DNA from: Vicinamibacteria bacterium
GTDB lineage: Bacteria > Acidobacteriota > Vicinamibacteria > Marinacidobacterales > Marinacidobacteraceae
Length of the DNA: 64,000 nt
Assembly (NCBI GenBank): GCA_963422395.1
Contig: OY729431.1
Coordinates: 160,001 to 224,000, forward strand
Direction of reading: 5' to 3'
The position numbers were made by a program, and so were the translations under genes. Positions 29,505-53,742 of this stretch are shown here, piece after piece (the stretch's first letter is position 1; each line of letters starts with the position of its first letter). Below the pieces are notes generated by a model, which saw only the letters and a program-made list of their open reading frames with translations, was not told where the DNA came from and did no database searches.

Positions 29505-29920
29505 GTACGCGCGCGTACGCGTACGCGCGAGGCCAAGTCGTTGACTGATTTATGGAAAGGGGAGGGCCGGTGTGTACGCGAAATTCATACCTATCGATTT
29601 ACACCGGCCCTCCCCCCCGGTAAGTCATTGAAAAATGGGGGGGGGGGGGGGGGGCGGCCGGTGTCGTTCGAGATCTCGAACCCGTTCTGAAGACACCGGC
29701 CCTCCCCCTGAAAACCGCGCCGGGTCAAGGAGTTCCGGCTTCGAATGGGCCAGGGGAGGGCCGGTGTCTCTGTTCGAGCGCCGGATCCGTCAACAGGTTT
29801 TCAACAGGTTTTCAACAGTCTGGAAGGTAGTTTTCAACAAAATGTTGAACTTCTATTCAGCATTCCATTTTTTCAAGGAGATCACTACTCACTATTTGAG
29901 TGATTCCTTAGGATTTTGGC
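29505..29920. repeat. Putative prophage replication origin (alternating iterons, palindromes, TTTTCAACA boxes, AT-rich tract)
   Basis: Five copies of GGGGAGGGCCGGTGT in +,-,+,-,+ orientation (third copy degenerate); 20-bp and 16-bp perfect palindromes; TTTTCAACA x3; between convergent operons. Confidence 0.65.
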
Positions 29921-30021
29921 GACTTCCCGCCGCGGAAGAAGGGGGCCAGTGCCAGGCAGAGGAGCGCCGCCAGCCAGAGGGCGCCGTAGAGGATCGCCCC
30001 GGCCAGCGCTTCCGGGTTCAG
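29908..30021 (-). CDS. Small single-TM peptide (37 aa, probable CTG start)
   Basis: (M)NPEALAGAILYGALWLAALLCLALAPFFRGGKSPKS; CTGA overlap with the upstream stop. Confidence 0.4.
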   Translation of the reverse strand: MNPEALAGAILYGALWLAALLCLALAPFFRGGKSPKS

Positions 30022-30857
30022 AAAAGCAGGCGGGCGGCGCGACCGAGGTCGAGGGTGACCCCGATCCCGCAGTGCCAGCCGCTCTCGGGGCCGCCGAAGC
30101 TGCGGGCGCAGGTGGGGCCGACGGCGAAGGGGAAGCGGGCCCGAGCGGCGGCTCTCGCGGCTTCTTCGACCGCCGCCTCGGCGGCGCGTCCGAAGTCGGC
30201 AGCGCGCGCTTCGGCGAGGTCGGCGCGGCGCTCGGCTGCAGCCCGCGCGAAGGCCTGGGCGTCGTGCGCCTGCCGCAGCTCGTCGAGCGCCTCGCGGAGC
30301 GCCGCTTCCCGGCGCTCCTGGACCTCCCGCCGCAGTTCGAGCTCGTAGGCGTAGTTGCGCAGCGCGTCGAGGTCGCGTTCGGCGCGTTCGAGCCGCAGCC
30401 GGAGTTCCCCGGGGGGCAGCGATTCGGGCTCGGGGGGCTCCGGCGCTTCCGGCTCGGGGGGCTTCGGCCAGTGCGCGCTCGGGGACTCCGGGAGCGGCGG
30501 CAGGAAGAACTCGCCCGCCAGCAGCTGCTCCAGCTCTTCCGCGCGGCGCAGGTGCTGTTCGGCCTCGTCGCGGAAGCCGTCGGCCTCGGCGCGGGCGTAG
30601 CGGATGTCGGCCCGGTAGCGGGCGTGGGCCAGATCGTCCAGCAGCCCGGAAGCGCCCGTCGGCGCCCCGGCGGCGGGGCGCCGGCCGCGGGCGGTCCAGC
30701 CGGCGGCGGCCCCGGTTCCGGCCGCGGCCAGGGCCAGCCAGAGGGCGGGCCGGCGCAGCGCGGGCGCCAGCCAGGCGGCGGTCAGCCGGACCAGCCGCCA
30801 GCCGGCAGAGAGCGCGGCGGTGATGACGGCGGAAAGGACTGCGGAGACGACGGCCAA
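30018..30857 (-). CDS. Membrane-anchored coiled-coil protein, putative spanin-like lysis protein
   Basis: N-terminal hydrophobic segments, long coiled coil split by a Pro/Glu linker, C-terminal beta-like segment FAVGPTC...WHCGIGVTLDL. Confidence 0.5.
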   Translation of the reverse strand: MAVVSAVLSAVITAALSAGWRLVRLTAAWLAPALRRPALWLALAAAGTGAAAGWTARGRRPAAGAPTGASGLLDDLAHARYRADIRYARAEADGFRDEAEQHLRRAEELEQLLAGEFFLPPLPESPSAHWPKPPEPEAPEPPEPESLPPGELRLRLERAERDLDALRNYAYELELRREVQERREAALREALDELRQAHDAQAFARAAAERRADLAEARAADFGRAAEAAVEEAARAAARARFPFAVGPTCARSFGGPESGWHCGIGVTLDLGRAARLLF

Positions 30858-31164: not shown

Positions 31165-31596
31165 TCAGGGCTTTTCGATCAGGGAGTCTCGATCGGGCGG
31201 GGACCCCCCGGCGCCCGCGGTCTCGTTCACCGAGACGCCCCGCGCCCAGGCTTCGGCGAAGAGGTCGGCGGCGGTTCGGCGGTTCTGCTCGGCAGCGCCC
31301 GCTTCGGCGGGGAGGAAGTCGGCCAGTTCGGGCGCTTCGCCGCCGCTTCCGCTGAAGACGCGGGAGACCAGCCAGGGGGTGAGCGCCAGCATCCGGTGCA
31401 GGATGGCGGGGCCGAAGGGGGCGGCTCGCCAGTGCTGGATCCAGTCGTCGAGCCAGCGCGCCGGCCAGCGGCTTTCCAGGATGTCGGGGTGCGGCGCCCC
31501 GACCGCGAGCGCTAGCTGGTGGAGGAAGTAGCGCTCGCCGGAGCGGGTCGCGCGCGCCGCTTCGACTTCGCTCGCGGCTTCGCCGCCGGTGCGTTT
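31165..31596 (-). CDS. Tail assembly chaperone T domain (expressed as a G-T fusion by -1 frameshift)
   Basis: The -1 frame after the A8 run is open: RYFLHQLALAVGAPHPDILESRWPARWLDDWIQHWRAAPFG...ELADFLP, like lambdoid gpT. Confidence 0.75.
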   Translation of the reverse strand, partial: KRTGGEAASEVEAARATRSGERYFLHQLALAVGAPHPDILESRWPARWLDDWIQHWRAAPFGPAILHRMLALTPWLVSRVFSGSGGEAPELADFLPAEAGAAEQNRRTAADLFAEAWARGVSVNETAGAGGSPPDRDSLIEKP

Positions 31597-32081
31597 TTTT
31601 TCGACCCGGGATCGTCGGGGCCGGTCTCGGGGCCGGCGGCGGCCGCAGCCGCCTCGGAGAGGCCGAGCGCGTCGGCCACCGCCCCTTCGGCGAGCAGCCC
31701 GGCGGCGGTTTCGAGGGTCTGGTGCAGGTCGTCGGCGCAGAGGAGTCCGCCCGCCTGTTCGCGGGTCAGGCCGAGCGGCCGGCCTTCCTCGTCGATGGCC
31801 AGCAGGACCGCGATGTCGAGCATCGACTGCACCAGCTGTTCAGCGCTGGCGGTCTCGGGACGGGTGTCGGCGGCGGCGGTCTCGCGGGGGGCGGCGTAGC
31901 CGGCCATGCGGATCTGGAGCAGCGAGCGCTCGACGCGGGTCGGCTCGCGCACCCGGAGCAGGCGGCCGTCCACCGTCGGGAGGTCCACCCAGGCGAAGTT
32001 CCGCACTTCCTTCGGGGTGAGGTCGGCGCGGCCCACCACCAGGGGCGGCGGCCCCGGTGCGGCGCTGCTGCTGCTGCTCAC
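31512..32081 (-). CDS. Tail assembly chaperone (gpG-like)
   Basis: VDLPTVDGRLLRVREPTRVER, LLAIDEEGRPL, ends near SKKN encoded by TCG AAA AAA AAC. Confidence 0.78.
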   Translation of the reverse strand: MSSSSSAAPGPPPLVVGRADLTPKEVRNFAWVDLPTVDGRLLRVREPTRVERSLLQIRMAGYAAPRETAAADTRPETASAEQLVQSMLDIAVLLAIDEEGRPLGLTREQAGGLLCADDLHQTLETAAGLLAEGAVADALGLSEAAAAAAGPETGPDDPGSKKNAPAAKPRAKSKRRARPAPASATSSTS

Positions 32082-33052
32082 GCCGCCGCTGCGACCCCGG
32101 CCTCGACGAAGGAGAAAGCCAGCCCGACCGCGCCGTGCTCGTCGTAACGGCAGCGCACCTCGGAGCGGTCGCGCGGGGCCATGGCGACCATCGCTTCCAT
32201 CGCCGGCGCCACCGGCTCGCCGGGCTTCGGGACCGGCACCCGCGCCGGAGCGACCCGGATCCGGCGGCGGCTCGCCGCGTCCTCGACCGCGAGGTAGCAG
32301 CGGTCGCCGATATAGAGGGTGTCCCCGGTGCGGAGGATGGGGTCCGGCAGGTGCTCGGCCCCCTGGATTTCGACGGAGAGGATGCCGTCGGACGGCAGCG
32401 CGACCGCCTTCACCACCTCGACCTGGTGGTGTTTCGCGCTGCCGTCCATTTGCGAGGCGGCAGCGGCCCCGCCGCCGGCCAGCGTCACTTCGGTCCGGCA
32501 GCGAATGAGCCGGCCGCCCCTTCCAGCGACCGTTACCGTGAGCGTCGAGCTCCCGCCGGCCTTCCAGTAGAGCCAGAGCGAGCGGTTCGCCCCCGAGCCG
32601 TACACCGGATCCAACTTGAGAACCTGGTCGTTCGAGGCGGCGGCGGTGACCGAGTCTGCGTTCGCCACCTCCAAGTGCAGCCGCTTCCGGCCGTTCCTGG
32701 GGAGGTGGATCGTCGCCGGGAGGCCGGTGCAGGACACTGCGAGCGGGTCGCGGCTCGCTTCATCTTCGGCGCCGAACCGGCCGAGGCTGCCGCGCACTCC
32801 GGCGCCGTGCACGAGCGGGGTGACCGGGATGCGGAAGAAGACGCCGGCGTGGCGGAGCCGGGCGGCGAAGGCGAGGATGGCGGCGGCCTGGTCGCGGTTG
32901 CGCCGGGGCGCGATGTTCAGCGTGCCGCCCCAGTTCCAGGCGGGGATCTGCGTCTCGACGAGGCGCCCTCCCTCGGTCTGGAGGAGGCGGGTCGTCCCGG
33001 GGAGGTCGATTTCCAGATCGCGGACGGAAACCGGAAGATCGAGGGTGGCCAC
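32078..33052 (-). CDS. Distal tail (Dit-like) protein with an inserted Ig-like domain
   Basis: N-terminal QT..G...WGGTL...ILAFAARLR..GVFFRIP; C-terminal LRTGDTLYIG...RIRVAP...LAFSFVEA; insert homologous to the tail-tip repeats. Confidence 0.68.
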   Translation of the reverse strand: MATLDLPVSVRDLEIDLPGTTRLLQTEGGRLVETQIPAWNWGGTLNIAPRRNRDQAAAILAFAARLRHAGVFFRIPVTPLVHGAGVRGSLGRFGAEDEASRDPLAVSCTGLPATIHLPRNGRKRLHLEVANADSVTAAASNDQVLKLDPVYGSGANRSLWLYWKAGGSSTLTVTVAGRGGRLIRCRTEVTLAGGGAAAASQMDGSAKHHQVEVVKAVALPSDGILSVEIQGAEHLPDPILRTGDTLYIGDRCYLAVEDAASRRRIRVAPARVPVPKPGEPVAPAMEAMVAMAPRDRSEVRCRYDEHGAVGLAFSFVEAGVAAAA

Positions 33053-33074
33053 GGTGCGGGAGGGGGTAAGTGTT

Positions 33075-33653
33075 TCACTCGGCGGGAGGGCCTTCGCCTC
33101 CGGGGAGGGTCCAGGCGCCTTCGTCGTCCTCGATACGGCACACCGCCCCGCGCCTTTCCAGGGTGCGGAGGCGGGAACGCGCCGCCGGCGCGGAGAGTCC
33201 GAGCGCGGCGGCGACTTCGCCGGCAGTGCGGGGCCCGGCGGCCAGCTCCGCCAGCACCGCGCGCTGGGCCGGGGTGAGCGAAACGAGCCGCGGGCCGAGG
33301 GGGGCTTCGTCGAGCGGGGGCGCTTCGGCCGGCGATGGAGCGGCTTCGGCCGGGGGCGGCGGGAAGAGCGCGGCGAGGGCTCGGCTTCGGCGCGGGAAGA
33401 AGTCGGGGACGGCGAAGAAGTCGAGGTCGCGGCTCATCAGGAGCGCGTAGGCGCGGGTGCGGTGGCCGGAGCGAGCGGCGCGGGCGGCCGGGCCGAAGAC
33501 GGCGGTGCGCTGGTTTTCCGGGGCGGCGGCGGCGATCTCGGTCAGGCGCGCTGCCGCCGGGCTCAACCGGCGCCGGCGCTTCGGCTTCGAGGGTGGAGTC
33601 GGCGAAACCTTCGGCGGAGCCGGTGCCGCCTGCTTCTCGGGAGAGCCGCCCAT
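33075..33653 (-). CDS. Winged-HTH transcription regulator (ArsR/MarR-like C-terminal domain)
   Basis: LTPAQRAVLAELAAGPRTAGEVAAALGLSAPAARSRLRTLERRGAV. Confidence 0.75.
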   Translation of the reverse strand: MGGSPEKQAAPAPPKVSPTPPSKPKRRRRLSPAAARLTEIAAAAPENQRTAVFGPAARAARSGHRTRAYALLMSRDLDFFAVPDFFPRRSRALAALFPPPPAEAAPSPAEAPPLDEAPLGPRLVSLTPAQRAVLAELAAGPRTAGEVAAALGLSAPAARSRLRTLERRGAVCRIEDDEGAWTLPGGEGPPAE

Positions 33654-33907: not shown

Positions 33908-34600
33908 TCAGAAACCCGCGTAGTGCGGCGCGGCGGCGAAGATGCGGCGGATGTAGCGGCGGGTCTCGGTGCAGTGGCGGGCGGCGCGGAGGCAGTTCGC
34001 CTCGTCCTCGATGTGCTCGAACCAGTGCCGCCGGTCGCATTCGCCGCGGCTTCCGCAGCGGCGGGCCTCGCGGAGCATCCAGCCGTAGCCGGCGTTGTAG
34101 CTGCCGAGGGCGAGAGCGAGCGCGGCGGCAGCGTCGGCGGTGCGGGGGCGCCAGAGCGTCTCCCAGCGCTTCAGCAGCCGGCACTGCGCCGCCACTGCCC
34201 AGCGCGGATCGAGTGGGCCGCCCCAGTCGGCGAGCTCGGGATACCAGCGGCGCAGGTCGGCGGCCGTCGGGGCGGTGATCTGGGCGAGGCCGCGGGCGAG
34301 GCCGGAGTCGGCCGCCGGGTTCCCGGAGGACTCCGCCATCATCTGGGCGGCGAGGAATGCCCGCCCCGAGGCGCTGAAGCCGCAGCGCTTCCCTTCGCGC
34401 CGGATCAGCTCGCGCCAGCGGAGCGCCCGGCCCGGCGGCGGCCCTTCGAGGAGCGACGCACCGGCGGCGGGGTTCGGGGGGGCGGCGGGGGGCCGAAGGA
34501 GGGGAGCTGCCGCTGCCGCCGTGACCGCGAGGGCGAGCCCGGCGCCCAGGAGGGCGGCGAGGCCCCGCGCCTGGAGGCCCCGCGCCTGGTTGCCGCTCAG
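33908..34600 (-). CDS. Endolysin, SLT lytic transglycosylase with an N-terminal hydrophobic segment (probable CTG start)
   Basis: AAQMMAESSGNPAA, ARGLAQITAPTA, ALGSYNAGYGW, ETRRYIRRI; frame open up to the CTGA overlap at 34600. Confidence 0.85.
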   Translation of the reverse strand: MSGNQARGLQARGLAALLGAGLALAVTAAAAAPLLRPPAAPPNPAAGASLLEGPPPGRALRWRELIRREGKRCGFSASGRAFLAAQMMAESSGNPAADSGLARGLAQITAPTAADLRRWYPELADWGGPLDPRWAVAAQCRLLKRWETLWRPRTADAAAALALALGSYNAGYGWMLREARRCGSRGECDRRHWFEHIEDEANCLRAARHCTETRRYIRRIFAAAPHYAGF

Positions 34601-35109
34601 CGGAAGGTGACCCCGATCTCGATGGCGGCCCGCCGCTCGGTGACGGAACGCGCGCCCGAGACGACGACCATGGTCTCGCCCTGGTGGCGGACCTCGATGT
34701 CGCTGCCGGCGAGCGGAGGATGCGCGGCGGCGCCGGTCGCGGTCCAGGGGTCGGGGGACGGGCGCCGCCAGTCGCTCGCCGTCAGCCGGAGCATCACGAA
34801 GTCGGTGAGATGGTCGAGCAGCTCGGCATCGCCTTCGGCGGCAGCGAAGGTCAGGCCCAGGCGCACCCGCGCACCCTCCGGCTCTTCGTCCACTCCGTCG
34901 AGGGTGGCCACCGCGTAGGGGGTTCGCGCCGACTCCGGCGCCGCACCCCGGAACACTGCGGGCGGTGCGGGCGGCGGCAGCCGGCCGTTACGGCTCGCAT
35001 CGGAGTCGCCGGCGTCCGGCGCCGCCGCTTCGAGGCGTGCTTCCCGGAGCGCGTCCATGGCGAGGTAGCGGCAGGCGTCGAGCGCCCGCACCCCGATCGA
35101 GGCGATCAC
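34597..35109 (-). CDS. Putative tail terminator/completion protein
   Basis: VFRGAAPESARTPYAV motif; about 170 aa; coupled (GTGA) to the head-closure gene. Confidence 0.55.
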   Translation of the reverse strand: MIASIGVRALDACRYLAMDALREARLEAAAPDAGDSDASRNGRLPPPAPPAVFRGAAPESARTPYAVATLDGVDEEPEGARVRLGLTFAAAEGDAELLDHLTDFVMLRLTASDWRRPSPDPWTATGAAAHPPLAGSDIEVRHQGETMVVVSGARSVTERRAAIEIGVTFR

Positions 35110-35525
35110 CCGACGCTCACCGGATCTGTGGGCGGTGGCGCCGGTTCGGCGGGGGGCGATTCTGCGGGTTCTGCGGGGCCGGCGGCGGTGAGCGGCAGCT
35201 CGATCAGCCGGGGGCGGTTCTGGGCTCCCACCCGGCGCGGCGGCCCGCAGTCCCAGCGCCGCCCGCGCCCCAGGACCACGCTCGTCTCGTCGAGCCCGGC
35301 CAGCGGGCGCAGGGTGATCGTCGCGGTCATCCGGTCGCGCTGCCGGTCGAAGTCGTCCGCCGGCCCCCCGCGCCCGTCGCGCCATTCGCAGGGGATGCGC
35401 TGGTGGACGGTCTCGGTCCAGCGGGCCGCCCCGGAGGCGGCGTCCGGCGGAGCCGGCGAGCGGAGGATCACGGCGATGCGGGAGTTGAAGCGCTGCGCCA
35501 CCGTGCGGCGCGGGAGCTTGCCCAT
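35106..35525 (-). CDS. Head-closure / head-tail adaptor protein
   Basis: RFNSRIAVI...D..SG...WTE...IPCEW, TATITLR...LDETSVVLGRGRRWD...RLIEL pattern. Confidence 0.65.
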   Translation of the reverse strand: MGKLPRRTVAQRFNSRIAVILRSPAPPDAASGAARWTETVHQRIPCEWRDGRGGPADDFDRQRDRMTATITLRPLAGLDETSVVLGRGRRWDCGPPRRVGAQNRPRLIELPLTAAGPAEPAESPPAEPAPPPTDPVSVG

Positions 35526-35547
35526 CGTTCCGTCTCGCGGCGCCGGA

Positions 35548-36045
35548 TCAGGGCGGGCCCCAGTCGAGGCTCTCGGGTTCGACCGGCTGCACCACATCGA
35601 GGGCCCGGTCGCCGCCGCCGGGGAGGATCGGACCGTAGCGCGCGCCGCTTTCGCGGGCACCCGCCGCCGGCGACTCGATCGTGGCGTCCCAGTGCCCGCC
35701 GCTCGCGGCGGCCGCGACCAGCCGCCCTTCCCAGCTCCCGACCTGGGACCAGTGGACGCCGTCCGGGGACCAGACGGCGCGCACCGCCGCGGGGTAGCCG
35801 GCTCCGGTGTTCCGGGCGATGTCGCGCATCACCGCCCCGGGCAGCCCGCCGAGGCGGATCCGCGCCGACGGCGGCGCCGAAGAACCGGCGGCGGTCGGGG
35901 TGACATCCACCTCGAGCACCAGCCCGCGGGCGGGGCGGTACACCTTCCCGGCGAACTCCAGCTCGGCGTCGCCGGCCCAGAGGTGGACGACTCCCCCCTC
36001 CGACTCCTCAGCTCCGAGCGAAACGAGGTCGGCGCTCAACGGCAT
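35548..36045 (-). CDS. Tail-tip hub / minor tail protein
   Basis: VHLWAGDAELEFAGKVYRP, RIRLGGLP, WEGRL, ends LDWG; GAGG SD. Confidence 0.65.
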   Translation of the reverse strand: MPLSADLVSLGAEESEGGVVHLWAGDAELEFAGKVYRPARGLVLEVDVTPTAAGSSAPPSARIRLGGLPGAVMRDIARNTGAGYPAAVRAVWSPDGVHWSQVGSWEGRLVAAAASGGHWDATIESPAAGARESGARYGPILPGGGDRALDVVQPVEPESLDWGPP

Positions 36046-37001: not shown

Positions 37002-37418
37002 TCAGAGGCCGAGCCGCTCGGCCATCCGGCCCAGCGCGCGCTCGACGGCGGCTTCCCCCGAGTGCTCGACCGCCTGCTCCGCCCAGCGGTTGCCGGCGAC
37101 CGGCCCCGCCCGGTGGTGGGTGAAGCCGCGCGAGGTCCAGATTCCCTGCGGCGCCATCTTCACCGAGGCGCGCGCCACCGACGGGTCGCGGCTGCGCCCG
37201 GCCTGGACGCGCACGCTCCGGGCGAGCGGGATTTCGGCGCCGATGCTCGACTTCGCCCGCGGCCGCCGCTGCCGGGGAGCGGCGCGGCGCACCGCCCGCG
37301 CCAGCTCGACCGCCCCGGCCCGCGCCGCCGCCCGCATCACCCGCCGCCCCGCGCGCCGGTCCAGCCGCGAAAGCTCCGCCTGCAGTTCCGCCGCCCCGGA
37401 GAGTTGCGCGTCGAGCAC
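37002..37418 (-). CDS. HK97 gp10-family neck/tail component
   Basis: AQLSGAAELQAEL..L....RRVMRAAARAGA..LA..VRRAAP...LARSV...RGFT.....GNRWAEQAVE. Confidence 0.75.
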   Translation of the reverse strand: MLDAQLSGAAELQAELSRLDRRAGRRVMRAAARAGAVELARAVRRAAPRQRRPRAKSSIGAEIPLARSVRVQAGRSRDPSVARASVKMAPQGIWTSRGFTHHRAGPVAGNRWAEQAVEHSGEAAVERALGRMAERLGL

Positions 37419-40190: not shown

Positions 40191-40310
40191 TGATCCGGTC
40201 GGCACTACCCCCCCGGGGGGGTGAAAGGTCGGGCGCACGGCACGCGAAACCGCGCCCAACCTCCGCTTTCACGGATGTTCGCTCGAGCGGCGGCCAGCCA
40301 ATGCGATTTC

Positions 40311-40572
40311 CGTTGATACTCTCGGGATTCCGCCGCATTGCCCCGGAGTTCGCCGGAGATCGCCGCTCTCGGGGGAACCGCCCGGCCCCGCGCCCCGGCG
40401 CCGGCCCGGCGCGGAATGCCGTGAATTCGTTGCGGCTCTCGGAGATTGCCGCCCTCGCCAGCGGCGGATTTCCGCCGTCCCCGCCGCCCGGCCCGCCCTC
40501 TTCCGAGCGCGGTTTCTCCGCACGCTTGTTCGCCCATTCCCCCGATGGAAACCGTTGCGGCTCTCGGGGATT
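40311..40572 (+). repeat. Three dispersed 19-20-bp direct repeats CGTTG(CGG/ATA)CTCTCGG(N)GATT
   Basis: Copies at 40311-40329, 40428-40447 and 40553-40572 (last two 19/20 identical), in a roughly 490-bp non-coding gap. Confidence 0.7.
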
Positions 40573-40683
40573 TCTGGAAGGCGCTTCCAGCGGCGCTCCG
40601 GCGGGAGTTCGCTTTTTCGCGGTTTGCGGAAAAATGTTCCCCGTGCCGCAAAAGCCGCCGGTCGCGCGGGAGGCCGTCCCTCG

Positions 40684-44250: not shown

Positions 44251-45138
44251 TTGCCCCGCCGCCTCCGCCCGCTCTCCAGTCTGGTCGAGGCGATCTCCCG
44301 CCTCCCGCAGACCCCGCCCCGGGCCGCGTTCGCCCCCGGCATCCGGGGAGAGAACGGAGGGCGCGTCGAGGGCGGGCCGTCCGAAGCCGCGCCGGCGGGC
44401 GACGGAACCAGCGTCCTGGTGTACGGCCCGATCGGGAATTCCGGGCGGGACGAGTTCGAGCAGATGTTCGGGGGCGGCATCGCGCCGGAAGAGGTCGTCG
44501 CCGCCATCCAGCGGATCCGCGCCGGCGGGCGTCAGCCGGTGGTGCGGATGGATTCGCCGGGCGGCTCGGTGTTCGGCGCTGCGGCGATCGCCAGCGTGGT
44601 CGAGGAGACCGGCGCGCGCGTCCACATCGACGGCCTCTGCGTCTCCGCCGGAATCCTGGTGCTGCTCGGCGCCGAAGAGCGCACCGCCAGCCCGGCGGCG
44701 CGGCTCATGGTCCACCAGGCCTCGCTGACCGCCCACGGCACCGCCGCCCAGCTCCTCGAAGCGGCCGCGGTCGTCGCCGACATCGATTCGATCTTCGTCG
44801 AGCGGCTCACGGCGATGACCTCGCTCGACGAAGCAGCCGCGAAGCAGGCACTGCTCGAGAGCACCTGGTATTCCCCGGCGGCGGCCGCCGCCATCGGGCT
44901 GATCGCCGCGCCCTCCGCCGAGAAGGGATTCCCTGCAGGGAAGTCTGCAGGGAAGTCCGCCGAGAAGAAGACCGCCGCCCCCGCTTCCTCGCCTCGACCC
45001 GCCGCCGCCCACCGTCCGCCCGAAGCCGCCCCCGCGCGGACCGCAACTCCCGTCCCGGCTGCGGAGCTCACCGCCGCCGCCGCCCTCGCTCTCCGCCGCG
45101 CCGCCCAGATCCGCGCGGCGGCCGCCGCTCTCCGCTGA
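44251..45138 (+). CDS. ClpP-type (S14) prohead protease
   Basis: VYGPIG, RMDSPGGSV, IDGLCVSAG, LMVHQAS, STWYSPAAAAAIGL; start uncertain. Confidence 0.87.
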   Translation: MPRRLRPLSSLVEAISRLPQTPPRAAFAPGIRGENGGRVEGGPSEAAPAGDGTSVLVYGPIGNSGRDEFEQMFGGGIAPEEVVAAIQRIRAGGRQPVVRMDSPGGSVFGAAAIASVVEETGARVHIDGLCVSAGILVLLGAEERTASPAARLMVHQASLTAHGTAAQLLEAAAVVADIDSIFVERLTAMTSLDEAAAKQALLESTWYSPAAAAAIGLIAAPSAEKGFPAGKSAGKSAEKKTAAPASSPRPAAAHRPPEAAPARTATPVPAAELTAAAALALRRAAQIRAAAAALR

Positions 45139-45158: not shown

Positions 45159-46613
45159 ATGCCCCTCGGCCATTCCGACATCCAGGCGCTCCGCGAGCGC
45201 CGCATCGACCTGACGAACCGCGTCCAGGAGGGCGCGGCAGAGCTGGCGGAGCTGGACGCTCTCGAAGGGGAGGAGCGCGACGCCGGCGCCATCGCCGCCA
45301 AAGCGCAGCAGCTCCTCCGGGTCGAGGACGCCTACGACGAGGCCGACGCGGTGTACCGCGCCCAGGACCGCGCCGCCCGCGTCAGCGCCGCCGCCGAAGC
45401 CGCGGGCGAAGACGACGAGCCGGCGAGTGCGGCCGAGCTGCTCCACGAACGCGCCTTCCTCGCCTACCTCCAGGGGGGGATGCCCCAGGCCCTCGATGTC
45501 GTCGGCCCCGAGGCCCGCACGGCGCTCCAGACCGTCCCCGGCCGCGAAGACCCCCGCCTCGAAGGGATCGTCCCCGACTCCGCCCGCGCCGCCGCCTTCT
45601 CCACCCCGAGCAACGCCGTCCTCTTCCCACCCTCGACCGTCCGCATGATCGAGCGCATCCGCAAGGCCTACGGCGGCGTCGAGCCCTACGCCCGTCGGAT
45701 CAGCACTCCGGACGGGCGCCAGCTCGACTTCCCGGTCTTCGACCGCGCCAGCCGCGGCAAGGGGCAGGCGGCGGTCAAGGCGGAGAGCGCCGACGCCGGG
45801 AGCGCCGACTGGACGAACCTCACCAAGGTGTCGCTCGGCAGCTATCGGGTCCCCTCCGGCATCCTGCCGGTGCCCCGCGAGGCGGTGCGCGACGCGGTCA
45901 CCGACCTCGAATCCTTCGTCGCCGAGGAGCTGATCGAGGATGTCGCCCGCGCCGAGGCCGAGATGCTGATGACCGGCCCCGGCGAGACCGCCCCCACCGG
46001 CCTGGTCACGGCCACCAGCGGCGTCAGCGCATCGCACTATGTCTCGCGGACCGACACCGGCGACCCCAAGACCACGCGGAAGTGGTTCTTCCGTTGGGAG
46101 GACGCGACCGCGCTCTTCTACGCCATCGACAAGGCCTACCGTGCCGCGCCCAATTCCGCGCTGGTCGTCGGCGACGGGATGCACAAGGCGCTGATGCTGC
46201 TCCACGACAACGACAACCGGCCGTTCTGGCAGCCCTCGTCGGTGGCGGGCGAGCCCGACCGCTTCCGCGGCAAGCTGGTGATCGAGGACTTCGGAATGCC
46301 GGATGCGGTTCCCACCGAAGAGGGAGAGGTCGCTCTCGGCGTCTTCGGCGATCTGCGCTGCTTCTTCGTCCGGCGGGTGGGCTCGATGATGTTCGAGCGC
46401 TTCACCGAGAAGTACGCCGAGAAGGGGCAGCTCGGGTTCATGGTCACCAGCTGGCTCGATTCGAAGATCAAGACGAAGAATGCCTTCGCGGTGCTCCGGG
46501 CGAGCGCCATCGGAACCGACGCCGGCAAGACCGGCTCGCTCGGCCTCGCCGACGCCGAAAAAGTCAAGGGCGTCCAGCTCGGCAGCAAGGTGATCGCGAA
46601 CAGCGACGGCTAA
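45159..46613 (+). CDS. Major capsid protein (HK97 fold, N-terminal delta-like coiled coil)
   Basis: AGGAGG SD; ILPVPREAVRDA..DLESFV, G.GETAPTGL, IDKAYR, LLHDNDNRPFWQPS, FGDL, RFTEKYAEKGQLGF. Confidence 0.93.
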   Translation: MPLGHSDIQALRERRIDLTNRVQEGAAELAELDALEGEERDAGAIAAKAQQLLRVEDAYDEADAVYRAQDRAARVSAAAEAAGEDDEPASAAELLHERAFLAYLQGGMPQALDVVGPEARTALQTVPGREDPRLEGIVPDSARAAAFSTPSNAVLFPPSTVRMIERIRKAYGGVEPYARRISTPDGRQLDFPVFDRASRGKGQAAVKAESADAGSADWTNLTKVSLGSYRVPSGILPVPREAVRDAVTDLESFVAEELIEDVARAEAEMLMTGPGETAPTGLVTATSGVSASHYVSRTDTGDPKTTRKWFFRWEDATALFYAIDKAYRAAPNSALVVGDGMHKALMLLHDNDNRPFWQPSSVAGEPDRFRGKLVIEDFGMPDAVPTEEGEVALGVFGDLRCFFVRRVGSMMFERFTEKYAEKGQLGFMVTSWLDSKIKTKNAFAVLRASAIGTDAGKTGSLGLADAEKVKGVQLGSKVIANSDG

Positions 46614-46640: not shown

Positions 46641-47435
46641 ATGACCGCAGCCATCCGGCCGCAGCGCTACGCGGCAGTGGACGCCGAGCGCCTCCGGTTC
46701 CAGCTCTGGAAGGACTCCCAGTGGCTCGACATCGCCGGCGTCCGCTCCTACTCCGGCCCCGACCGCACCGCGAACGAGTGGGCGGTCGGCGGCCCCCACA
46801 CCGAGGGCGAGGACTACGAGCGCGGCAAGACCGTCTTCGGGACGATGCAGCTCGATCTCCTCTGGTCGCCGCTGGTCGAGGGGCAGGCCGAGCTCGAGAA
46901 GATCTACTTCTCGGCGGATGAACGCCGCTTCCGGGTGATCCACCGGGGCGGCGGACGGGACGCCCACAAGGGCGACGGGACGGCGAGTCCGGGCCGGGCG
47001 CTCTCCGGCGCCGTCACCGGCAACTCCAAGGTCTTCACGGTAGCGAAGCAGGCGGGCGGGAACAGCGACGAGGGCACCCGCCGCACGAAGGTCCTCGCGG
47101 GCTACGACCTGGCGCAGCGCGGCGGCGGGATCGGCGTCGGCGTCGGCCTGAAACGGGGCAAGACCTATCACTTGGTGGTGATCGAAGATGTCACCGCAAA
47201 GCTCACCGCGAAGGTGCGGGCGGTGCCCGGCAAGGAACTCGCCGACATCGCCGCCGGCGAGTTCGTGGTGATGAAGCTGCCGCTCACGATGGAGTTCCAG
47301 GCCGTCGTCCAGGCGATGGGGATCTCCGTCCCCAGCGGGCAGGCGGGCTCCGGTTCGACGACGCTCCGGCTGAACAGCAGGCCGGACTACGGGATCGACG
47401 AAGAGAGCGCCCAGACGATCTACGACGGGCAGTAG
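46641..47435 (+). CDS. Major tail (tube) protein with an internal insertion
   Basis: GGAGG SD; WLDIAGVRSYSGP, DYERGK..FGTMQLDL, RRFRV, TMEFQAVV, STTLRLNSRP. Confidence 0.75.
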   Translation: MTAAIRPQRYAAVDAERLRFQLWKDSQWLDIAGVRSYSGPDRTANEWAVGGPHTEGEDYERGKTVFGTMQLDLLWSPLVEGQAELEKIYFSADERRFRVIHRGGGRDAHKGDGTASPGRALSGAVTGNSKVFTVAKQAGGNSDEGTRRTKVLAGYDLAQRGGGIGVGVGLKRGKTYHLVVIEDVTAKLTAKVRAVPGKELADIAAGEFVVMKLPLTMEFQAVVQAMGISVPSGQAGSGSTTLRLNSRPDYGIDEESAQTIYDGQ

Positions 47436-47487: not shown

Positions 47488-50400
47488 GTGGGTTTCTGGG
47501 CCAGTCTCTTCAGCTGGGGGACGCTCCAGAGCGCCCTCATCGCCGCCGCCATCAGCGTCGGCACCCGGGTCGCCTACCACCTCCTCTCCGACAAGAAGGG
47601 CCTGGACCCGCGCGAGCGCGAACGCTGGCAGCCGCAGACTCCGCGCTCACCCGCCGAAGTTCCTCGGCGGGTGATCGTCGGGCGCGCCCGCGTGGGCGCG
47701 ATCAATGTCTGGTATCGGGTGGACCGCGCCGCCGGAGCGCTCCATTCGCTCTGGATCGTCGCCGACGCCGACGAGGCCGACAACCAGCTCGGGATCGTCG
47801 AGGTGGAGGTGGACTCCTACCGCGTTCCCCTGGCTGCTGCGGACGCGGATCCGCTGCATCCCGTCGGGGCGAACCGCCGCGAGGAGATCGGCGCCCGCGG
47901 CGGCGACCTCGATGTCGTCTTCGACGGCAGCGGCGAACAGATCGGCAACACCCGGCTGCGCGAAGCCGGGTTCGAGCCCAGCGGCCTCGACGCGCCGAAC
48001 ACCATCGAGGGGGTGGCGTGGCTGCTGGTGACGCAGCGCAATCCGCTCGAAGGGAGCTGGAAGAACCGGGGGCTGCCCGAGGTCTTCGCCACCGTCCAGC
48101 GCGTCCGGAAAGGCGGCGACGGCAGCGCCCAGGAGAACCCCGCCGCCCTCGCCGGGTGGTGGCTCGCCCGCCACTCGGTGAACACCGACGCTGCCTCGCT
48201 CGCCGCCGCCGAAGCCGCCTGCGCCGAGATGATCGTGAACGGCGACGGCCAGGCGGTCGCCCGCTTCCGCTGCGGCGGCATGATCGAGAGCATCGATCCC
48301 TTCTGGCGGGTGGTGCGCGCCTTCGAGGAGGCGATGGACGGGCGCATCCTCATCGGCGGCGACGGGCTGGCCCGCTTCTACGCCGGCGTCGCCAGCCCGC
48401 CGACCGCATTCCTCATCGAGGACACCGTCGGGGCGCCGACGGTGCAGCACGAAGGGCGGCGGCGCGAGCAGCGCAACATCCTCCGCGCCCGGATCCGCGC
48501 CCACTCCGATCCCCGCCGCCGCGGCGCCGAGGTCACCGTCGAGCGCCGCGTCGAAACCTCGATCGAGAAGATCGGCGAGTGGGCCCACGACGCCGGCTTC
48601 CTCCGCCTGGTCGCCCACGAAGGCCAGGCCCGGCGGCTGCTCGCCAGCCAGCTCCGCCGCTCGCAGCGCCCGATCGTCGTCGCCGCCACCCTGCCGGAAA
48701 CCTTCGACACCGTGCGGATGCGCGCCTGGCAGCGCGGCAGCGTCCACCTCGACGCCCTCGGCGCCCGCGGTCCGTTCCGCCTCCTCGCCGACCCGAAGTG
48801 GAACCGCAGGGCCGGAACCGTCGCGGTCGAGTTGATCGAAGACCCGACCGCCCTCTACTCCGACTCCGAGGACGCGACGCTCTCGCCGCGGAACGAGCCG
48901 TCCGAGGAATACGAGCTCCCCCCGCCGGAGAACCTGCGCGCCGACGCCGACGCGGTGGTGCAGCACGACGGCACGGTCTCGGTGCAGACCGAGGTGGAGT
49001 GGGATCCGCCGCCCAAGCTCGCCCGTTGGGTGCTCTTGCAGCTCCGGCGGCCGCCGAGCACCGTCTGGGGGGACGGCTATTCCGGCCCCGCGGCCGGCCC
49101 GGCGCTGCTGACCTACACCCCGCCCGGCCAGGCCCTCGCGCTGCGGGCGCGGTTCTTCGACCCGCGGGGCCGGCGCTCCGAGTGGTCCAAAGTCCTCTCC
49201 TTCACCCCGGGCGGCGACCTGCAGCCGCCGGCGGTGCCGGAGAACCTGACCGCCGAGCCGCTGTCCGACACCACTGCGCTCGTCACCTGGAAGCCCCCGC
49301 CGGATCCGGACTACGCGAGAGCGGAGCTCTTCGCCGCCGAAGCCGACGCCGCCGCCCCGGACGCCGAAGACGCGGCCGCGCCGCGGGCCGGCGACTCGGG
49401 AAACGCCGGCGAAGGCATCCAGCAGGGGGTCCTCACTCTCGAAACCGGAGCTGCCTTCGTCTGGGCGCGCGCCCTCGACCACAGCGGCAACAAGTCGGCC
49501 TGGATCGGGCCGGTGCTCGCCCGCGCGAAGCCCCCCGCGACCGAAGTCGATGTGCAGATCCTCTACCGCCGGTCGCGGATCCGCCCGCAGCCCCCGCCCG
49601 ACCTGCCGCTCGATCAGATCTCCCAGACCGACTGGATGGCTGACTTCAACTCCGTCGGCGCCCTGACGGTCGGCGTGTCGCTCTGGCAGGCCAACCGCAC
49701 CGTCCTGCTCTCCCGCGCCGCCGCCGGCGCGGATCCGAGAGTCCTGAGCCGCTCCGCCTGGCAGGTCTCCCTGGCGGTGTCCGCCCCTTCCCTCGAGGAC
49801 AAAGTCGAACCGGGGAATCAGCGGGCCTTCTCGAACCAGGCGGCGAAACCGGTGAAGCCGATCTACCAGCCGGGCGAAGACGACGGCTGGGCGGTCGGCG
49901 GTCCGCTGACCAAGTGGACCGACCAGGCGAGCGGGGTCCTCTGGTACGGCAACGACCGCTGCGACGGGACCGGGGACGCCAAGTGGGTCGTCCACCGCAC
50001 CGCGACCAAGACCCAGGAGTTGATCGAGGGGGACGAGTACACTCCCCCGCAGCACGACGCCACCCCCTGGAGCGAGGTGGAGAGCTACACCCGCTCCGGA
50101 CCCGGCCCGCAGCCGCAGCCGAAGGACCTCCCCGAGATCCTGGTCGGCGAGACGAAGACCTTCACCGTCGGGGAAAACCCCTTCGCCGACGCCGCCGACT
50201 CCGACGAAACCGCCCCCGACCCCTCGGTCAGCGTAACGATCGAGCGGGAGAGCACCGCCACCGCCACCGTCTCGACGGCATGGCAGAACGACATCCTCGA
50301 GCTCTCGATCACCGGGGGTTCGGTGGGGGTGCTGGTGGTGCGGGTCACCATCAGCGCCCCGCAAAGCGGGCGCCTCGACGAAGTGAGCAGCTTCCGGGTG

Positions 50401-53379
50401 CGGGTGGTCGCCCAGAAGAAGTCCGGCTCGACGGTGAAGATCGATGGGGTCCCGGACACGCTCAACCTCCGCCCGGGCGAGACCCGCGACGAGGACTTCA
50501 CCGTCCAGCCGGCGGCGGCGGTCACCCGCGTCGCGGCGATCGGCTCGGCCGCCGCGATGCTGACCGCTTCGCTGCCGGACAACGACGGCGGCGCCCGCCG
50601 GCTGCGGATCGCGGGCGAGCAGAACCGGTCTCGCAAAGACAGAGAAGCGGTGGTGACCGTCACCGCTGAGCTCGCGCTCGACGACGGTTCGACGGCCAGG
50701 GACTCGGCGGAGCAGACCGTCACCCTCGAACCGGACCCCTGGATCACCCTGCGCCGGGGGCCCAGGATCGAATTCGAGCCCGAAGGGGGCGTCCACTACA
50801 TCCGGCTCGACTACGGCCCCAAGCTCTCCGACCGTACCTCCCGCTTCGAAGTCGTTATCGCTTCCGGGGATGCGGCGAGCACTGCGTCGGTGAGCATCGA
50901 CCAGTACGGCGCCGGCGGCCGGAAGCTCGACGACGCCCTGCGGTTGGTCCTGAACGACAACCGAAGCGGCCGGCAGCAGCTCAGCGGCAGTGTCCGGGTG
51001 TGGCACCGACAGACCTACCAGGGCACGACCATTCGGCGGAGCGCCTCCGCCGACCTCCTGGTCACCGTGAAGCCCGGCGAGAAATCGCCGAAGGGGCCGG
51101 GAATCCACGACCTGCCCGGGAAGGAGGAAGTCGCCGTCGGCGAGACGAAGACCGTGACCTACGAGATCGAGGTCGCGGGCGGGGTGGAGAACCTGACCGC
51201 CGGGAACCTCGCCGTCAGCGTTCCGGTGGGCGCCCACCGGGTAACCGTCCAGCCCGACCCGGCGCCGGCGAAGGGAGCTACCCGCAGCTTCCGGGTGACC
51301 GGTGTCCAGGCCGGGAGCGCGACGGTGACCGTGACGCTGACCGACAACGAAGGGCAGCAGGTCTCCGAGGATTGCGTCGTCGAAGTGACCGGGCCCGCCG
51401 CCCCCTCCTGCTCCGGCCTGCCGGAGCGGGTCACCTTGACCCCGGGCGTCTCGCGGCGGCTGGCCTTCACGGTGGCGAACGCTTCTTCGGTCGCTGCCGC
51501 CGCCTCGAACGCCAATGTCTGGGTCGACCAGATCTACAGGAGCGGGGCGAACCGCTCGTTCTACCTGAGATGGAAGAAGGCCGGGAGCGCGACGGTGACC
51601 GTCACCGTCACCGGTGCGGGCGGCCGCGACACCTGCCTGATCGCGGTCACGCTCGAGCCGCGGACCGGCCCCTCCTGCTCCGGCCTGCCGGAGCGGGTCA
51701 CCCTGGCCCCGGACGAATCGCGGCGGCTGGCCTTCACGGTGTCGAACGCGGCTTCGGTCGCTGCCGCCGCCTCGAACAGCGATGTCCAGGTCGGCCAGAT
51801 TTACGGGAGCGGGGCGAACCGCTCGTTCTATCTGGACTGGAAGCGGGCCGGGAGCGCGTGGGTGACCGTGCGCGTCGCCGGTGCGGGCGGCCAGGTCGTG
51901 AGCTGCCGGATCGAGGTCACGTTGTCGCCGCGCCCGATCGATCTGCCGTCGAGCGACACCCTCCGGGTCGGCCAGAGCCGGACCTATTCCATCACCGTGG
52001 CGTCCCGGCGGCAGCTGCGGGTCGAGACCTCGAAGAGCGGCATCGTCAGGGCGTCGCTCAGAGGGGGGACCGGCGACACCCGGCGGCTCACGGTGGAGGC
52101 GCTCGCGGTGGGAGTGGTGGATGTGACCGTAACCGCCGCCGGCATCCGGGGCGGGGATCCGAGTTCCGACACCGTCACGATCACCGTCGAAAAGGCGGTG
52201 CTGCACGCCGAGATCAGCGGCCTCAAGGGCTCGTTCGAAATGGATGTCGGCGAGACCGACTCCGACAGCTTCACGGTGCGGAACACTTCGGGCGTGTCGG
52301 TGTCCTCTGCCGCCAGGAGCATCGCCACCGCCAGCGTGTCCGGCTCCGGCAGCTCGCGGACCCTGCGCGTCACCGGGAAGAAGAGGGGCCGTACCACGGT
52401 GACGGTCACCGCCGCCGGAACCGGCGGCGGCCGCCCCGCCGAAGAAGATCGGGATGTGGAGGTCACCACCGCGGCGGTGCCGGACGCCGAGATCAGCGGC
52501 CTCGATACCTCGGTCACTCTGGATGTGGACGAGACCGACTCCGACAGATTCACGGTTCGGAACACTTCGGGCGTGTCGGTGTCCTCTGCCGCCAGGAGCA
52601 TCGCCACCGCCAGCGTGTCGGGCTCCGGCAGCTCGCGGACCCTGCGCGTCACCGGGAAGGCGGGGGGCCGGACCACGGTGACGGTCACCGCCCGCGGGAG
52701 GAGCGGCGGGGAGGACGCCGAGGAGGATGTGGATGTGACCGTGAACGCGCCGACGGTGTTGGATGCCGAGATCAGAGGCCTCGTTTCCAGGCTGCCGGCG
52801 ATGGATGTCGGCGAGAGCGAAACCGATGGATTCACGATTCGGAACGCCTCGCGGGTGACGGTGCACGGATGGGACCGCGACATCGCCCGCGCCAGCTTGT
52901 CCGGCTCCGGCAGCTCGCGGACCCTGCGGGTTACCGGGGTGTCGGCGGGCGATACGACGGTGACCGTCACTGCCTACGGGAAGAACGGAGGCGCGAACGC
53001 GGCGAAGGATGTGGAGGTGACCGTCAACCCGCCGCCGAACCCGCCGCCGACGCTCACCGCTCTCTCGTCCGCGTACGCGCTGAAGACCTACCCGGACAGC
53101 GGCTACTCCATCACCGAGTACTACTCGGTGTCCCCGACTTCCACCACGGTGAGCGTGTCGAGCTCGAACACCTCGCTCGTCAAGATTCGGCAGAACGACA
53201 CCACGGGAACGACTCGTAACTTCTCCGTGTGGGCGGCGGGCCAACGTACCGGCAGGGCCACGGTGACGGTCACCGCCCGCGCCAACGGGAAGACGACCAC
53301 GAGGCGGATCCTGGCCACCGTGGCGAAGCCGGGGACTCCCGATCCCGATCCCGATCCCGATCCCGATCCGATCGCCTGA
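47488..53379 (+). CDS. Central tail tip/host-specificity protein (gpJ-like) with FN3 and many Ig-like domains, 1963 aa
   Basis: PRRVIVGRARVG, ENPA, RFRCGGMI (J-like N-terminus); FN3 motifs PPENL..VEWDPP and PAVPENL..VTWKPP..WARALDHSGNKSAW; repeated G.ATVTVT Ig modules. Confidence 0.88.
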   Translation: MGFWASLFSWGTLQSALIAAAISVGTRVAYHLLSDKKGLDPRERERWQPQTPRSPAEVPRRVIVGRARVGAINVWYRVDRAAGALHSLWIVADADEADNQLGIVEVEVDSYRVPLAAADADPLHPVGANRREEIGARGGDLDVVFDGSGEQIGNTRLREAGFEPSGLDAPNTIEGVAWLLVTQRNPLEGSWKNRGLPEVFATVQRVRKGGDGSAQENPAALAGWWLARHSVNTDAASLAAAEAACAEMIVNGDGQAVARFRCGGMIESIDPFWRVVRAFEEAMDGRILIGGDGLARFYAGVASPPTAFLIEDTVGAPTVQHEGRRREQRNILRARIRAHSDPRRRGAEVTVERRVETSIEKIGEWAHDAGFLRLVAHEGQARRLLASQLRRSQRPIVVAATLPETFDTVRMRAWQRGSVHLDALGARGPFRLLADPKWNRRAGTVAVELIEDPTALYSDSEDATLSPRNEPSEEYELPPPENLRADADAVVQHDGTVSVQTEVEWDPPPKLARWVLLQLRRPPSTVWGDGYSGPAAGPALLTYTPPGQALALRARFFDPRGRRSEWSKVLSFTPGGDLQPPAVPENLTAEPLSDTTALVTWKPPPDPDYARAELFAAEADAAAPDAEDAAAPRAGDSGNAGEGIQQGVLTLETGAAFVWARALDHSGNKSAWIGPVLARAKPPATEVDVQILYRRSRIRPQPPPDLPLDQISQTDWMADFNSVGALTVGVSLWQANRTVLLSRAAAGADPRVLSRSAWQVSLAVSAPSLEDKVEPGNQRAFSNQAAKPVKPIYQPGEDDGWAVGGPLTKWTDQASGVLWYGNDRCDGTGDAKWVVHRTATKTQELIEGDEYTPPQHDATPWSEVESYTRSGPGPQPQPKDLPEILVGETKTFTVGENPFADAADSDETAPDPSVSVTIERESTATATVSTAWQNDILELSITGGSVGVLVVRVTISAPQSGRLDEVSSFRVRVVAQKKSGSTVKIDGVPDTLNLRPGETRDEDFTVQPAAAVTRVAAIGSAAAMLTASLPDNDGGARRLRIAGEQNRSRKDREAVVTVTAELALDDGSTARDSAEQTVTLEPDPWITLRRGPRIEFEPEGGVHYIRLDYGPKLSDRTSRFEVVIASGDAASTASVSIDQYGAGGRKLDDALRLVLNDNRSGRQQLSGSVRVWHRQTYQGTTIRRSASADLLVTVKPGEKSPKGPGIHDLPGKEEVAVGETKTVTYEIEVAGGVENLTAGNLAVSVPVGAHRVTVQPDPAPAKGATRSFRVTGVQAGSATVTVTLTDNEGQQVSEDCVVEVTGPAAPSCSGLPERVTLTPGVSRRLAFTVANASSVAAAASNANVWVDQIYRSGANRSFYLRWKKAGSATVTVTVTGAGGRDTCLIAVTLEPRTGPSCSGLPERVTLAPDESRRLAFTVSNAASVAAAASNSDVQVGQIYGSGANRSFYLDWKRAGSAWVTVRVAGAGGQVVSCRIEVTLSPRPIDLPSSDTLRVGQSRTYSITVASRRQLRVETSKSGIVRASLRGGTGDTRRLTVEALAVGVVDVTVTAAGIRGGDPSSDTVTITVEKAVLHAEISGLKGSFEMDVGETDSDSFTVRNTSGVSVSSAARSIATASVSGSGSSRTLRVTGKKRGRTTVTVTAAGTGGGRPAEEDRDVEVTTAAVPDAEISGLDTSVTLDVDETDSDRFTVRNTSGVSVSSAARSIATASVSGSGSSRTLRVTGKAGGRTTVTVTARGRSGGEDAEEDVDVTVNAPTVLDAEIRGLVSRLPAMDVGESETDGFTIRNASRVTVHGWDRDIARASLSGSGSSRTLRVTGVSAGDTTVTVTAYGKNGGANAAKDVEVTVNPPPNPPPTLTALSSAYALKTYPDSGYSITEYYSVSPTSTTVSVSSSNTSLVKIRQNDTTGTTRNFSVWAAGQRTGRATVTVTARANGKTTTRRILATVAKPGTPDPDPDPDPDPIA
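51403..51930 (+). repeat. Two tandem Ig-like coding repeats, type A (267-bp period)
   Basis: CCCTCCTGCTCCGGCCTGCCGGAGCGGGTCACC at 51403 and 51670. Confidence 0.9.
52207..53030 (+). repeat. Three tandem Ig-like coding repeats, type B (279-bp period)
   Basis: GCCGAGATCAG at 52207, 52486 and 52765; first two copies share a near-identical block of over 100 bp. Confidence 0.9.
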
Positions 53380-53421
53380 TCCGGGGCGGCGGCGGGCCGG
53401 GGGGCATCGAGGGGGAGGGGC

Positions 53422-53742
53422 ATGGCGCGCGCTCCCCGCTGGCGGCGCGATCCGTCGGCGCGCGTCCGGCGCCCGGCGCGGCAGCCCGCCTCGAAGCGCG
53501 GTTACGGCCGCGACTGGCGCCCGCTGCGCGACGAGGTCCTCGCCGCCGAGCCGCTCTGCCGCCGCTGCCGGGCGGCAGGGCGCACCGCCGCCGCCGAGCT
53601 GGTGGACCATGTGATCCCCGTCGAGATCGCCCCCCAGCGCCGGCTCGACCCGAAGAACCTGCAGCCGCTCTGCCGTCCCTGTCACGGCGAGAAGACCGCC
53701 GAGGACCGCGCCCGGTATCGGCAGGAGATCGCCGGATGGTGA
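53422..53742 (+). CDS. HNH endonuclease (HK97 gp74-like terminase accessory)
   Basis: ASKRGYGRDW..LR..VL..EPLCRRC...VDHVIP...NLQPLCRPCHGEKT. Confidence 0.93.
   Translation: MARAPRWRRDPSARVRRPARQPASKRGYGRDWRPLRDEVLAAEPLCRRCRAAGRTAAAELVDHVIPVEIAPQRRLDPKNLQPLCRPCHGEKTAEDRARYRQEIAGW

Follow-up and report, generated by a model that had tools for sequence, protein, structure and literature searches.

It was found that an inserted element in the genome of a Vicinamibacteria bacterium carries a nearly full virion gene set of the siphovirus type in a non-canonical order and on both strands. The stretch analysed here, called the window, is the 64,000 nucleotides of contig OY729431.1 (GenBank assembly GCA_963422395.1) from position 160,001 to 224,000. 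The source genome is a single contig of 2.9 Mb with 68.4% G+C, and all positions below are those of the window. The insertion spans ~21576 to ~53900 (~32 kb) between a tRNA-Ser(GGA) gene and dnaX, and the virion genes occupy ~30018-53742. The element is probably an integrated temperate phage of the siphovirus type, having an HK97-type head, a lambda-type non-contractile tail and a reordered late region, and belonging to a lineage without a close relative in the searched collections. The gene families are those of HK97/lambda-type temperate siphoviruses; the order is not. Few traits of small tailed phages are as well conserved as the succession of their head and tail genes, and position-based annotation relies on it.

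Order of the virion genes

The late region reads as follows from left to right.

30018..30857, minus: membrane and coiled-coil protein (best coding frame; no family match)
31165..32081, minus: tail assembly chaperone pair G/GT (G at 31512-32081; T in the -1 frame down to 31165)
32078..33052, minus: candidate distal tail protein, Dit (phrog_1302 1e-3; Atlas score 0.79)
33075..33653, minus: MarR-type winged-helix regulator (PF12802 6e-9)
33908..34600, minus: SLT lytic transglycosylase with a signal-peptide-like N-terminus (PF01464; phrog_669 1e-21)
34597..35109, minus: tail terminator (structure model and Foldseek; no profile match)
35106..35525, minus: head closure protein (lineage family f7)
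35548..36045, minus: candidate tail-tip (hub) protein (phrog_2048 9e-4; one homologue in genome G230)
36255-36674 and 36721-36963, plus: two small membrane proteins, candidate holin or spanin parts (coding frames with hydrophobic segments; no family match)
37002..37418, minus: HK97-gp10-type neck or tail completion protein (PF04883 1.4e-3; phrog_5 1.9e-4; hhalign 93%)
37506..39488, plus: tape measure protein (TMP), 660 aa (12 PHROG TMP families, best phrog_9483 3e-18)
39519..40190, plus: head-tail adaptor or connector (phrog_442 6e-5; hhalign 93%)
40191..40683: non-coding gap of 490 bp (direct repeats 40423-40447 / 40548-40572 of 25 nt, and partial copies)
40684..41061, plus: small membrane protein ahead of terL (coding frame; no family match; not a recognisable terS)
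41208..42851, plus: large terminase, terL (PF03354, PF20441; phrog_9 1e-112; lineage profile)
42863..44086, plus: portal (PF04860 7e-26; lineage profile)
44251..45138, plus: ClpP-type prohead protease (PF00574 1e-12; PHROG head protease families; lineage profile)
45159..46613, plus: HK97-type major capsid protein (PF05065 4e-34; lineage profile)
46641..47435, plus: probable tail tube protein (PF16461 0.005; phrog_41 6e-4; Atlas score 0.94)
47488..53379, plus: J-like central fibre, 1963 aa, with immunoglobulin-like (Ig-like) repeats (phrog_5616 4e-19; phrog_31 1.5e-13; Big_2; homologous to J of G230)
53422..53742, plus: HNH endonuclease (PF01844; phrog_144 1e-26), the last gene before dnaX

Two arms diverge from a 210-bp gap (36045-36255). 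The minus strand to the left of it carries, from left to right, the membrane and coiled-coil protein, T, G, the Dit-like protein, the winged-helix regulator, the lysin, the terminator, the closure protein and the hub candidate. To the right of it, two membrane genes on the plus strand are followed by the neck gene alone on the minus strand, and the plus strand then continues with TMP, the adaptor, the 490-bp gap, a membrane gene, terL, portal, protease, capsid, tube, fibre and HNH.

A distant prophage, in genome G230, has the canonical order HNH, terL, portal, protease, capsid, small genes, TMP, tip genes and J. The canonical order is also given by the median offsets of the gene families in 80 loci with a related terL (HNH at -1.1 kb and terS at -0.6 kb, through to TMP at +8.6 kb). 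By tblastn, HNH lies ~1 kb upstream of terL in 32 of these 80 loci, while a TMP match upstream of terL was found in none of them. G230 and the 80 loci, representing the HK97/lambda siphoviruses, share with the window element HNH, terL, portal, the ClpP-type protease, the HK97-type capsid protein, the adaptor and the closure protein, as well as the gp10-type neck, the T-type chaperone with a -1 frameshift, TMP and the J-like fibre. In contrast to them, the window element has TMP and the adaptor upstream of terL, the tube and fibre genes directly after the capsid gene, the closure, terminator, chaperone and lysin genes on the other strand, and HNH at the far end; terS is not recognisable, and identity does not exceed 35%. 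The conserved succession of packaging, head, joining, tube, chaperone, TMP and tip genes was not found in the window element.

The distance between the two orders was expressed as a number of inversions. The firmly assigned genes were grouped into seven blocks and a breadth-first search was performed, with the circular canonical order accepted as the target in every rotated or reflected form. At least five inversions are needed for the seven blocks to reach the canonical order. The original prediction, which was made from the sequence alone, had described a near-complete set of virion genes, spread over both strands and out of the canonical order. Since at least five inversions separate the window from the canonical order, this central observation is confirmed, and the statement that a single inversion cannot produce the arrangement is borne out. 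In the proposed comparison with relatives, G230 and the 80 loci keep the usual order, unlike the window element. The only inverted repeats found that could mediate inversions are a pair of Ig-domain sequences (71-73%).

GTGA overlaps couple the Dit-like gene to G (32078-32081) and the closure gene to the terminator gene (35106-35109), and both adjacencies are foreign to the canonical order. Three 4-bp stop/start overlaps had been cited earlier as joining new neighbours. That of the Dit-like gene and G is indeed a GTGA, whereas those of terminator and lysin (34597-34600) and of the supposed holin gene and terL (41058-41061) read CTGA, so that translation would have to start at a CTG. A search for sigma-70-like promoters found none, and sites resembling terminators occur near the chance level.

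Assignment of the genes and search for relatives

Spurious long open reading frames (ORFs) are common at 70-77% G+C; 150 ORFs were listed in 30 kb, and an antisense ORF of 2012 aa opposite the fibre gene is an example of a long ORF arising by chance. The choice of frame was based on the G+C content of each codon position and on a score for codon usage, for which confident genes served as the training set. Codon usage is uniform over the virion block. The leftmost ORF of the original prediction, 29908-31110 on the minus strand, turned out to be in the wrong frame by these statistics, the coding frame being 30018-30857 on the same strand. The statistics also mark 35548-36045, 35106-35525 and 34597-35109 (all minus) as separate small genes and not one broken gene, and they expose the minus-strand gene 37002-37418 amid plus-strand genes.

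The assignments are based on Pfam and PHROGs, on lineage profiles, on hhalign, and on an AlphaFold2 (AF2) model combined with Foldseek. For the lineage profiles, the plus-strand ORFs of the 80 loci, whose terL proteins are at most 35% identical to that of the window, were clustered into 36 families, labelled by their median distance from the terL start. The families were built without the window sequence and searched against the 561 ORFs of the window. In addition to the terL and portal families (f1 and f3) and those of the protease and the capsid protein, the following families match the window.

f4, HNH: 64 members, offset -1.1 kb, window match 2e-31
f5, adaptor: 56 members, offset +5.4 kb, window match 8.5e-8
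f7, closure: 50 members, offset +5.8 kb, window match 2.8e-4
f8, neck: 38 members, offset +6.3 kb, window match 2e-9
f11, T frame: 19 members, offset +7.7 kb, window match 4e-6
f13, TMP: 16 members, offset +8.6 kb, window match 8e-23

A public terL protein (P0002) is 547 aa in length, which fits the start at 41208. The closure protein, matched by its family, reached a probability of only 7.7% by hhalign (P 0.0045). TMP is homologous to the TMP of the canonical prophage in G230. The T chaperone (31165-31599, minus) matches PF06223, the lambda Minor tail protein T family (7.4e-5), and phrog_337. A canonical slippery sequence, A_AAA_AAC, lies at 31599-31593 in the zero frame of G, with the T domain in the -1 frame. 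Thus, the G/GT pair has the sequence features of a pair made by a predicted -1 frameshift.

The other tail proteins were more difficult to assign. The terminator was assigned from a single-sequence AF2 model (pLDDT 62, pTM 0.57), whose Foldseek matches are mostly tail terminators (monocin cap, lambda gpU, T4 gp15 and T5 p142; E 4e-3 to 5e-2). The lineage families at the terminator and tube positions had no match among the 561 window ORFs. For the tube protein, tail tube families are among the nearest clusters in the Atlas search, and hhalign gave 8-15% probability (P 0.002-0.004) to two tube-position families. The only homologue of the hub candidate comes from G230, where it is a gene of 244 aa located between TMP and J. 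No match of 40% probability or more was obtained when the terminator, tube, Dit-like, G and hub proteins and three small ORFs were aligned by hhalign with 17 lineage families. A phmmer search of the hub, tube and fibre proteins against the PDB sequences gave no significant match, and Pfam gave no labels for the tail-tip genes of G230. Among tail genes, TMP, the T chaperone, the terminator, the tube candidate and the J-like fibre are all present in the element.

Residues 103-192 of the Dit-like protein (window 32480-32734) form an Ig-like domain that is 52-54% identical to the fibre repeats (51394-51927), which suggests that such domains may have been exchanged within the element between the two genes. 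The first 100 residues, compared with 1.84 billion representative sequences, matched only themselves and one marginal sequence, and the AF2 model of the protein was unusable (pLDDT 40). When the Dit-like protein was used as the seed of an iterative search, the search strayed to ORFs antisense to terL, and its result was set aside.

The membrane and coiled-coil protein at 30018-30857 had been called spanin-like, and the small membrane protein ahead of terL had been called a holin. The holin and spanin labels are only leads, derived from hydrophobic segments in the translations. As a whole, the profile searches support most of the gene assignments made earlier, while holin, spanin, Dit and hub stay at the level of leads and the tube assignment is weak.

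Is the lineage known from elsewhere? Word searches found only TMP itself with the TMP query, and only the capsid protein itself and one 25% match with the capsid query. The best terL match is 33-35% identical, and no terL relative exceeds 35%. The viral_contigs collection gave no match with either portal or TMP. Among phage records, none matched TMP, and those matching terL were all below 60% identity, the best among the matches listed being 33%. In the host clade, TMP matched none of 40 relatives, the source genome aside, and terL matched none of 54 other genomes of the order; in a 400-genome sample of the phylum, distant TMPs were found in eight other genomes and nothing closer. The suggestion of an undescribed lineage fits these results, with terL relatives at 35% or below and TMP and capsid proteins without a near relative.

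The cluster S mycobacteriophages (Marvin and relatives) are siphoviruses described as departing from the usual structural gene order (PMC9872701). They are the sole precedent found in the literature, which does not show that none closer is in print. Only two minor tail genes are reported to be displaced in cluster S (PMC9872701), whereas most of the head-to-tail adjacencies are broken in the window element.

Continuity, selection and competing readings

Nine public runs from six studies hold the stretch wholly or partly, and five of them hold at least half of its words. The contigs of four runs were compared with the window, ignoring contig joints whose sides are ~20 letters as repeats or other organisms. 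Two contigs of one run (X1), 17 kb and 9 kb in length, cover 30000-38821 with no difference and 38792-47928 with 7 differences. Pieces of 0.5-1.6 kb from two runs of other studies (X5 and X6) bridge the regulator/lysin, lysin/terminator, membrane gene/neck, adaptor/terL and capsid/tube/fibre junctions. It might be argued that the assembly has joined pieces of different phages or strains, since the source genome is a single 2.9-Mb contig made by an unknown assembly method and X1 may be the source sample itself. However, the X1 contigs have the same joins, X5 and X6 bridge several of the unusual junctions, and codon usage is uniform across the block. With the same joins in contigs from runs of three studies, an artefact is hardly credible, in agreement with the original prediction.

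Variant strains bear on whether the genes are maintained. The indels listed within ORFs mostly net a multiple of three: +6 at 31860, -12 at 44933, a group of -1, -3 and -2 within 10 nt at 37642-37651 (net -6), and +11 and +1 at 49532-49533 (net +12). A +1/-1 pair at 45085-45090 cancels within 5 nt. An exception is a 14-nt loss at 31162 which touches the stop codon of T. The variable sites were examined in addition. Of 40 sites, codon position 3 accounts for 24, position 2 for 11 and position 1 for 5 (binomial P 5e-4), and 22 are synonymous, where ~30% would be predicted on the basis of the codons and the share of transitions (binomial P 8e-4). The ratio of nonsynonymous to synonymous rates (dN/dS), which had been proposed as a check, is roughly 0.35 from these 40 visible sites among 214 variable ones. 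There are, then, signs of purifying selection on the genes of the element. No RNA dataset is listed among the runs carrying the stretch.

In the reading preferred here, the element would be a prophage integrated at tRNA-Ser(GGA) next to dnaX. After the integrase and a DUF3631 protein, the late genes would form two arms diverging from 36045-36255. The minus arm would comprise the hub, closure and terminator proteins, the secreted SLT lysin, the MarR regulator, the Dit-like protein and the G/GT chaperones. The plus arm would comprise two membrane proteins, TMP, the adaptor, the repeat-rich gap, terL, portal, protease, capsid, tube, the giant fibre and HNH, with the neck gene inverted singly inside it. 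The two arms may be co-regulated late operons, the repeats upstream of terL may serve as a packaging or control site, and particles may still be made. The prophage of this unsampled lineage is probably functional or was so recently. A stronger form of the reading, which I hold with slightly less than even confidence, is that of a viable temperate siphovirus lineage whose synteny has been dismantled (by at least five inversions) and rebuilt as two divergent late operons with new couplings, with HNH unlinked and no recognisable terS.

Several observations count against the preferred reading. HNH is not beside terL but 10.6 kb downstream of the terL end. The terS family of the lineage (78 ORFs, at -0.6 kb) had no match among the window ORFs, and hhalign of two small ORFs gave none, although a divergent terS cannot be excluded. 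No attR was found, that is, no second copy of the tRNA end; the integrase and the tRNA junction are both present, while the paired second attachment (att) copy is not found. The tube, Dit and hub scores are weak, and the terminator depends on a model of medium confidence built from a single sequence. No ATG, GTG or TTG at which the SLT lysin could begin lies ahead of its domain, and the sole start candidate that includes the signal-peptide-like segment is the CTG in the CTGA overlap with the terminator stop. Long open frames arise easily at 68-77% GC, so intact frames alone are weak evidence. In X5, the reading frame of the first 84 portal codons would be altered by a +1 at 42855 (intergenic, immediately ahead of portal) and a -1 at 43114, 259 nt further on. 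The 40 sites of the selection test all lie within 42.9-49.9 kb (head, tube and fibre genes). None of the relatives found shares this gene order, and its stability, supposed in the original prediction, is no more than a possibility.

Some of these points would be expected of a grounded, defective prophage. Its genes, once in the canonical order, would have been reshuffled in the integrated state, with loss of terS and attR, and it would no longer make infectious particles. The missing terS and attR, the separation of HNH from terL, the lysin without a canonical start and the possible portal frame difference in X5 all speak for it. On the other hand, passing through at least five inversions without losing any other core virion gene is an unlikely path of decay; the new junctions are tight, two of them with GTGA coupling; the -1 slippery site is retained; and, the X5 portal pair excepted, the listed indels of the ORFs add up to multiples of three or offset each other within 5 nt, alongside the synonymous excess. 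Decay, already doubted in the original prediction, is thus not favoured, and the defective prophage is less likely than the preferred reading. Still less likely are two elements lying side by side, namely a P4- or satellite-type island with the integrase and the DUF3631 protein (21.6-29.3 kb) and a structural element (29.3-53.8 kb) that is dependent on it or older. The 600-bp repeat-rich non-coding gap at 29300-29900 divides the two parts, an imperfect direct repeat (29308-29332 / 53798-53828) flanks the structural part with a score reached by none of 300 shuffles, and a related genome (G018) has a different insert of 11.9 kb at the same tRNA. However, both copies of the repeat are terminator-like hairpins after plus-strand operons and are not necessarily att sites, the tRNA end is not repeated at 29.3 kb, and the insertion contains only one integrase.

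The original prediction had also allowed for a domesticated particle-producing element, kept for host use in the manner of a gene transfer agent (GTA). GTAs of the RcGTA type are phage-derived particle gene sets with some parts away from the main cluster; they are passed on vertically in a clade, package random host DNA in undersized heads, and are not known to have an integrase or replication genes of their own. The window block resembles them as a phage-derived particle gene set. A relaxed gene order, as might follow once exchange with other phages stops, the absence of a recognised terS and the signs of purifying selection would suit such an element. Unlike GTAs, however, the window block is a strain-level insertion at a tRNA gene, adjoining an integrase, and has a candidate replication gene in the DUF3631 protein. 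Vertical conservation across the host clade was not seen either, since the TMP query found nothing in the 40 relatives, the terL query nothing in the 54 other genomes of the order, and 3 of the 6 relatives examined have no insert at the site. Domestication is therefore not supported and is quite improbable. Capsid-forming satellites (cf-PICI type) have head and packaging genes and are not known to carry tail genes; the window element differs from them in carrying tail genes.

If the viable lineage were true, the canonical order would be habitual, a matter of how modules are exchanged, and assembly would not depend on it, even at a genome size of 32 kb. A compact element with a full parts list, purifying selection and nearly every adjacency broken would serve as a natural test case: either assembly or expression depends on the order, or the order is no more than a product of module recombination. 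Such an element would, moreover, be a warning that annotation by position, and calls of prophage completeness, can fail in poorly sampled host lineages.

Insertion site and flanking features

The features of the left part, and the site itself, are as follows.

21486..21574, plus: tRNA-Ser(GGA), the integration site on the attL side (ARAGORN)
21509..23674, plus: ORF of a P4-type tyrosine integrase (PF13356 in three stretches, PF22022 and PF00589; phrog_1 2e-46)
23643..26231, plus: DUF3631 protein, candidate replication protein (PF12307 1e-9)
29300..29900: repeat-rich non-coding stretch (run of 18 G, three CAACAGGTTTT copies, several inverted GGGAGGGCCGGTGT copies; no coding signal)

The flanking host genes encode AcrB, an outer-membrane efflux protein and SurA, which are a typical Gram-negative set. 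The tRNA gene and dnaX are neighbours in 3 of the 6 related genomes examined (G012, G008 and G005), with ~45 nt from the tRNA end to the dnaX start in the spacers printed for relatives, and the sequence match to the tRNA region of the relatives stops at ~21576, the left edge. Because the two genes adjoin in relatives and homology ends there, ~21576 to ~53900 is read as an insertion. In the window, dnaX starts at 53925. Its first 70-140 residues (window 53925-54350) are unalignable with those of relatives, and the spacer region is variable and of low complexity, so the right edge of the insertion is not exactly placeable. No paralogue of the element proteins was found elsewhere in the source genome.

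The direct repeats in the 490-bp gap before terL (40423-40447 and 40548-40572) are 88% identical, and the partial copies have a CTCTCGG core. The gap is a candidate cos or pac (packaging) site or a late-control site. Likewise, the stretch 29300-29900 is a candidate origin or an operator or control region, and the DUF3631 protein may have a role in replication.

The tRNA-Ser site appears to be an insertion hot spot. The 11.9-kb insert of G018 lies at 893-12789 of a locus (L108, G018:C1:925000-939500), and in G021 (L107) a remnant of 48 integrase residues adjoins the tRNA. In the window, the integrase ORF overlaps the tRNA gene, and its true start lies downstream of the tRNA. Integrases of the P4 type usually carry one arm-binding domain. 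The ORF in the window has three tandem Arm-DNA-binding domains (PF13356), and 62-nt repeats lie in it at 21944, 22271 and 22586, spaced 327 and 315 nt apart.

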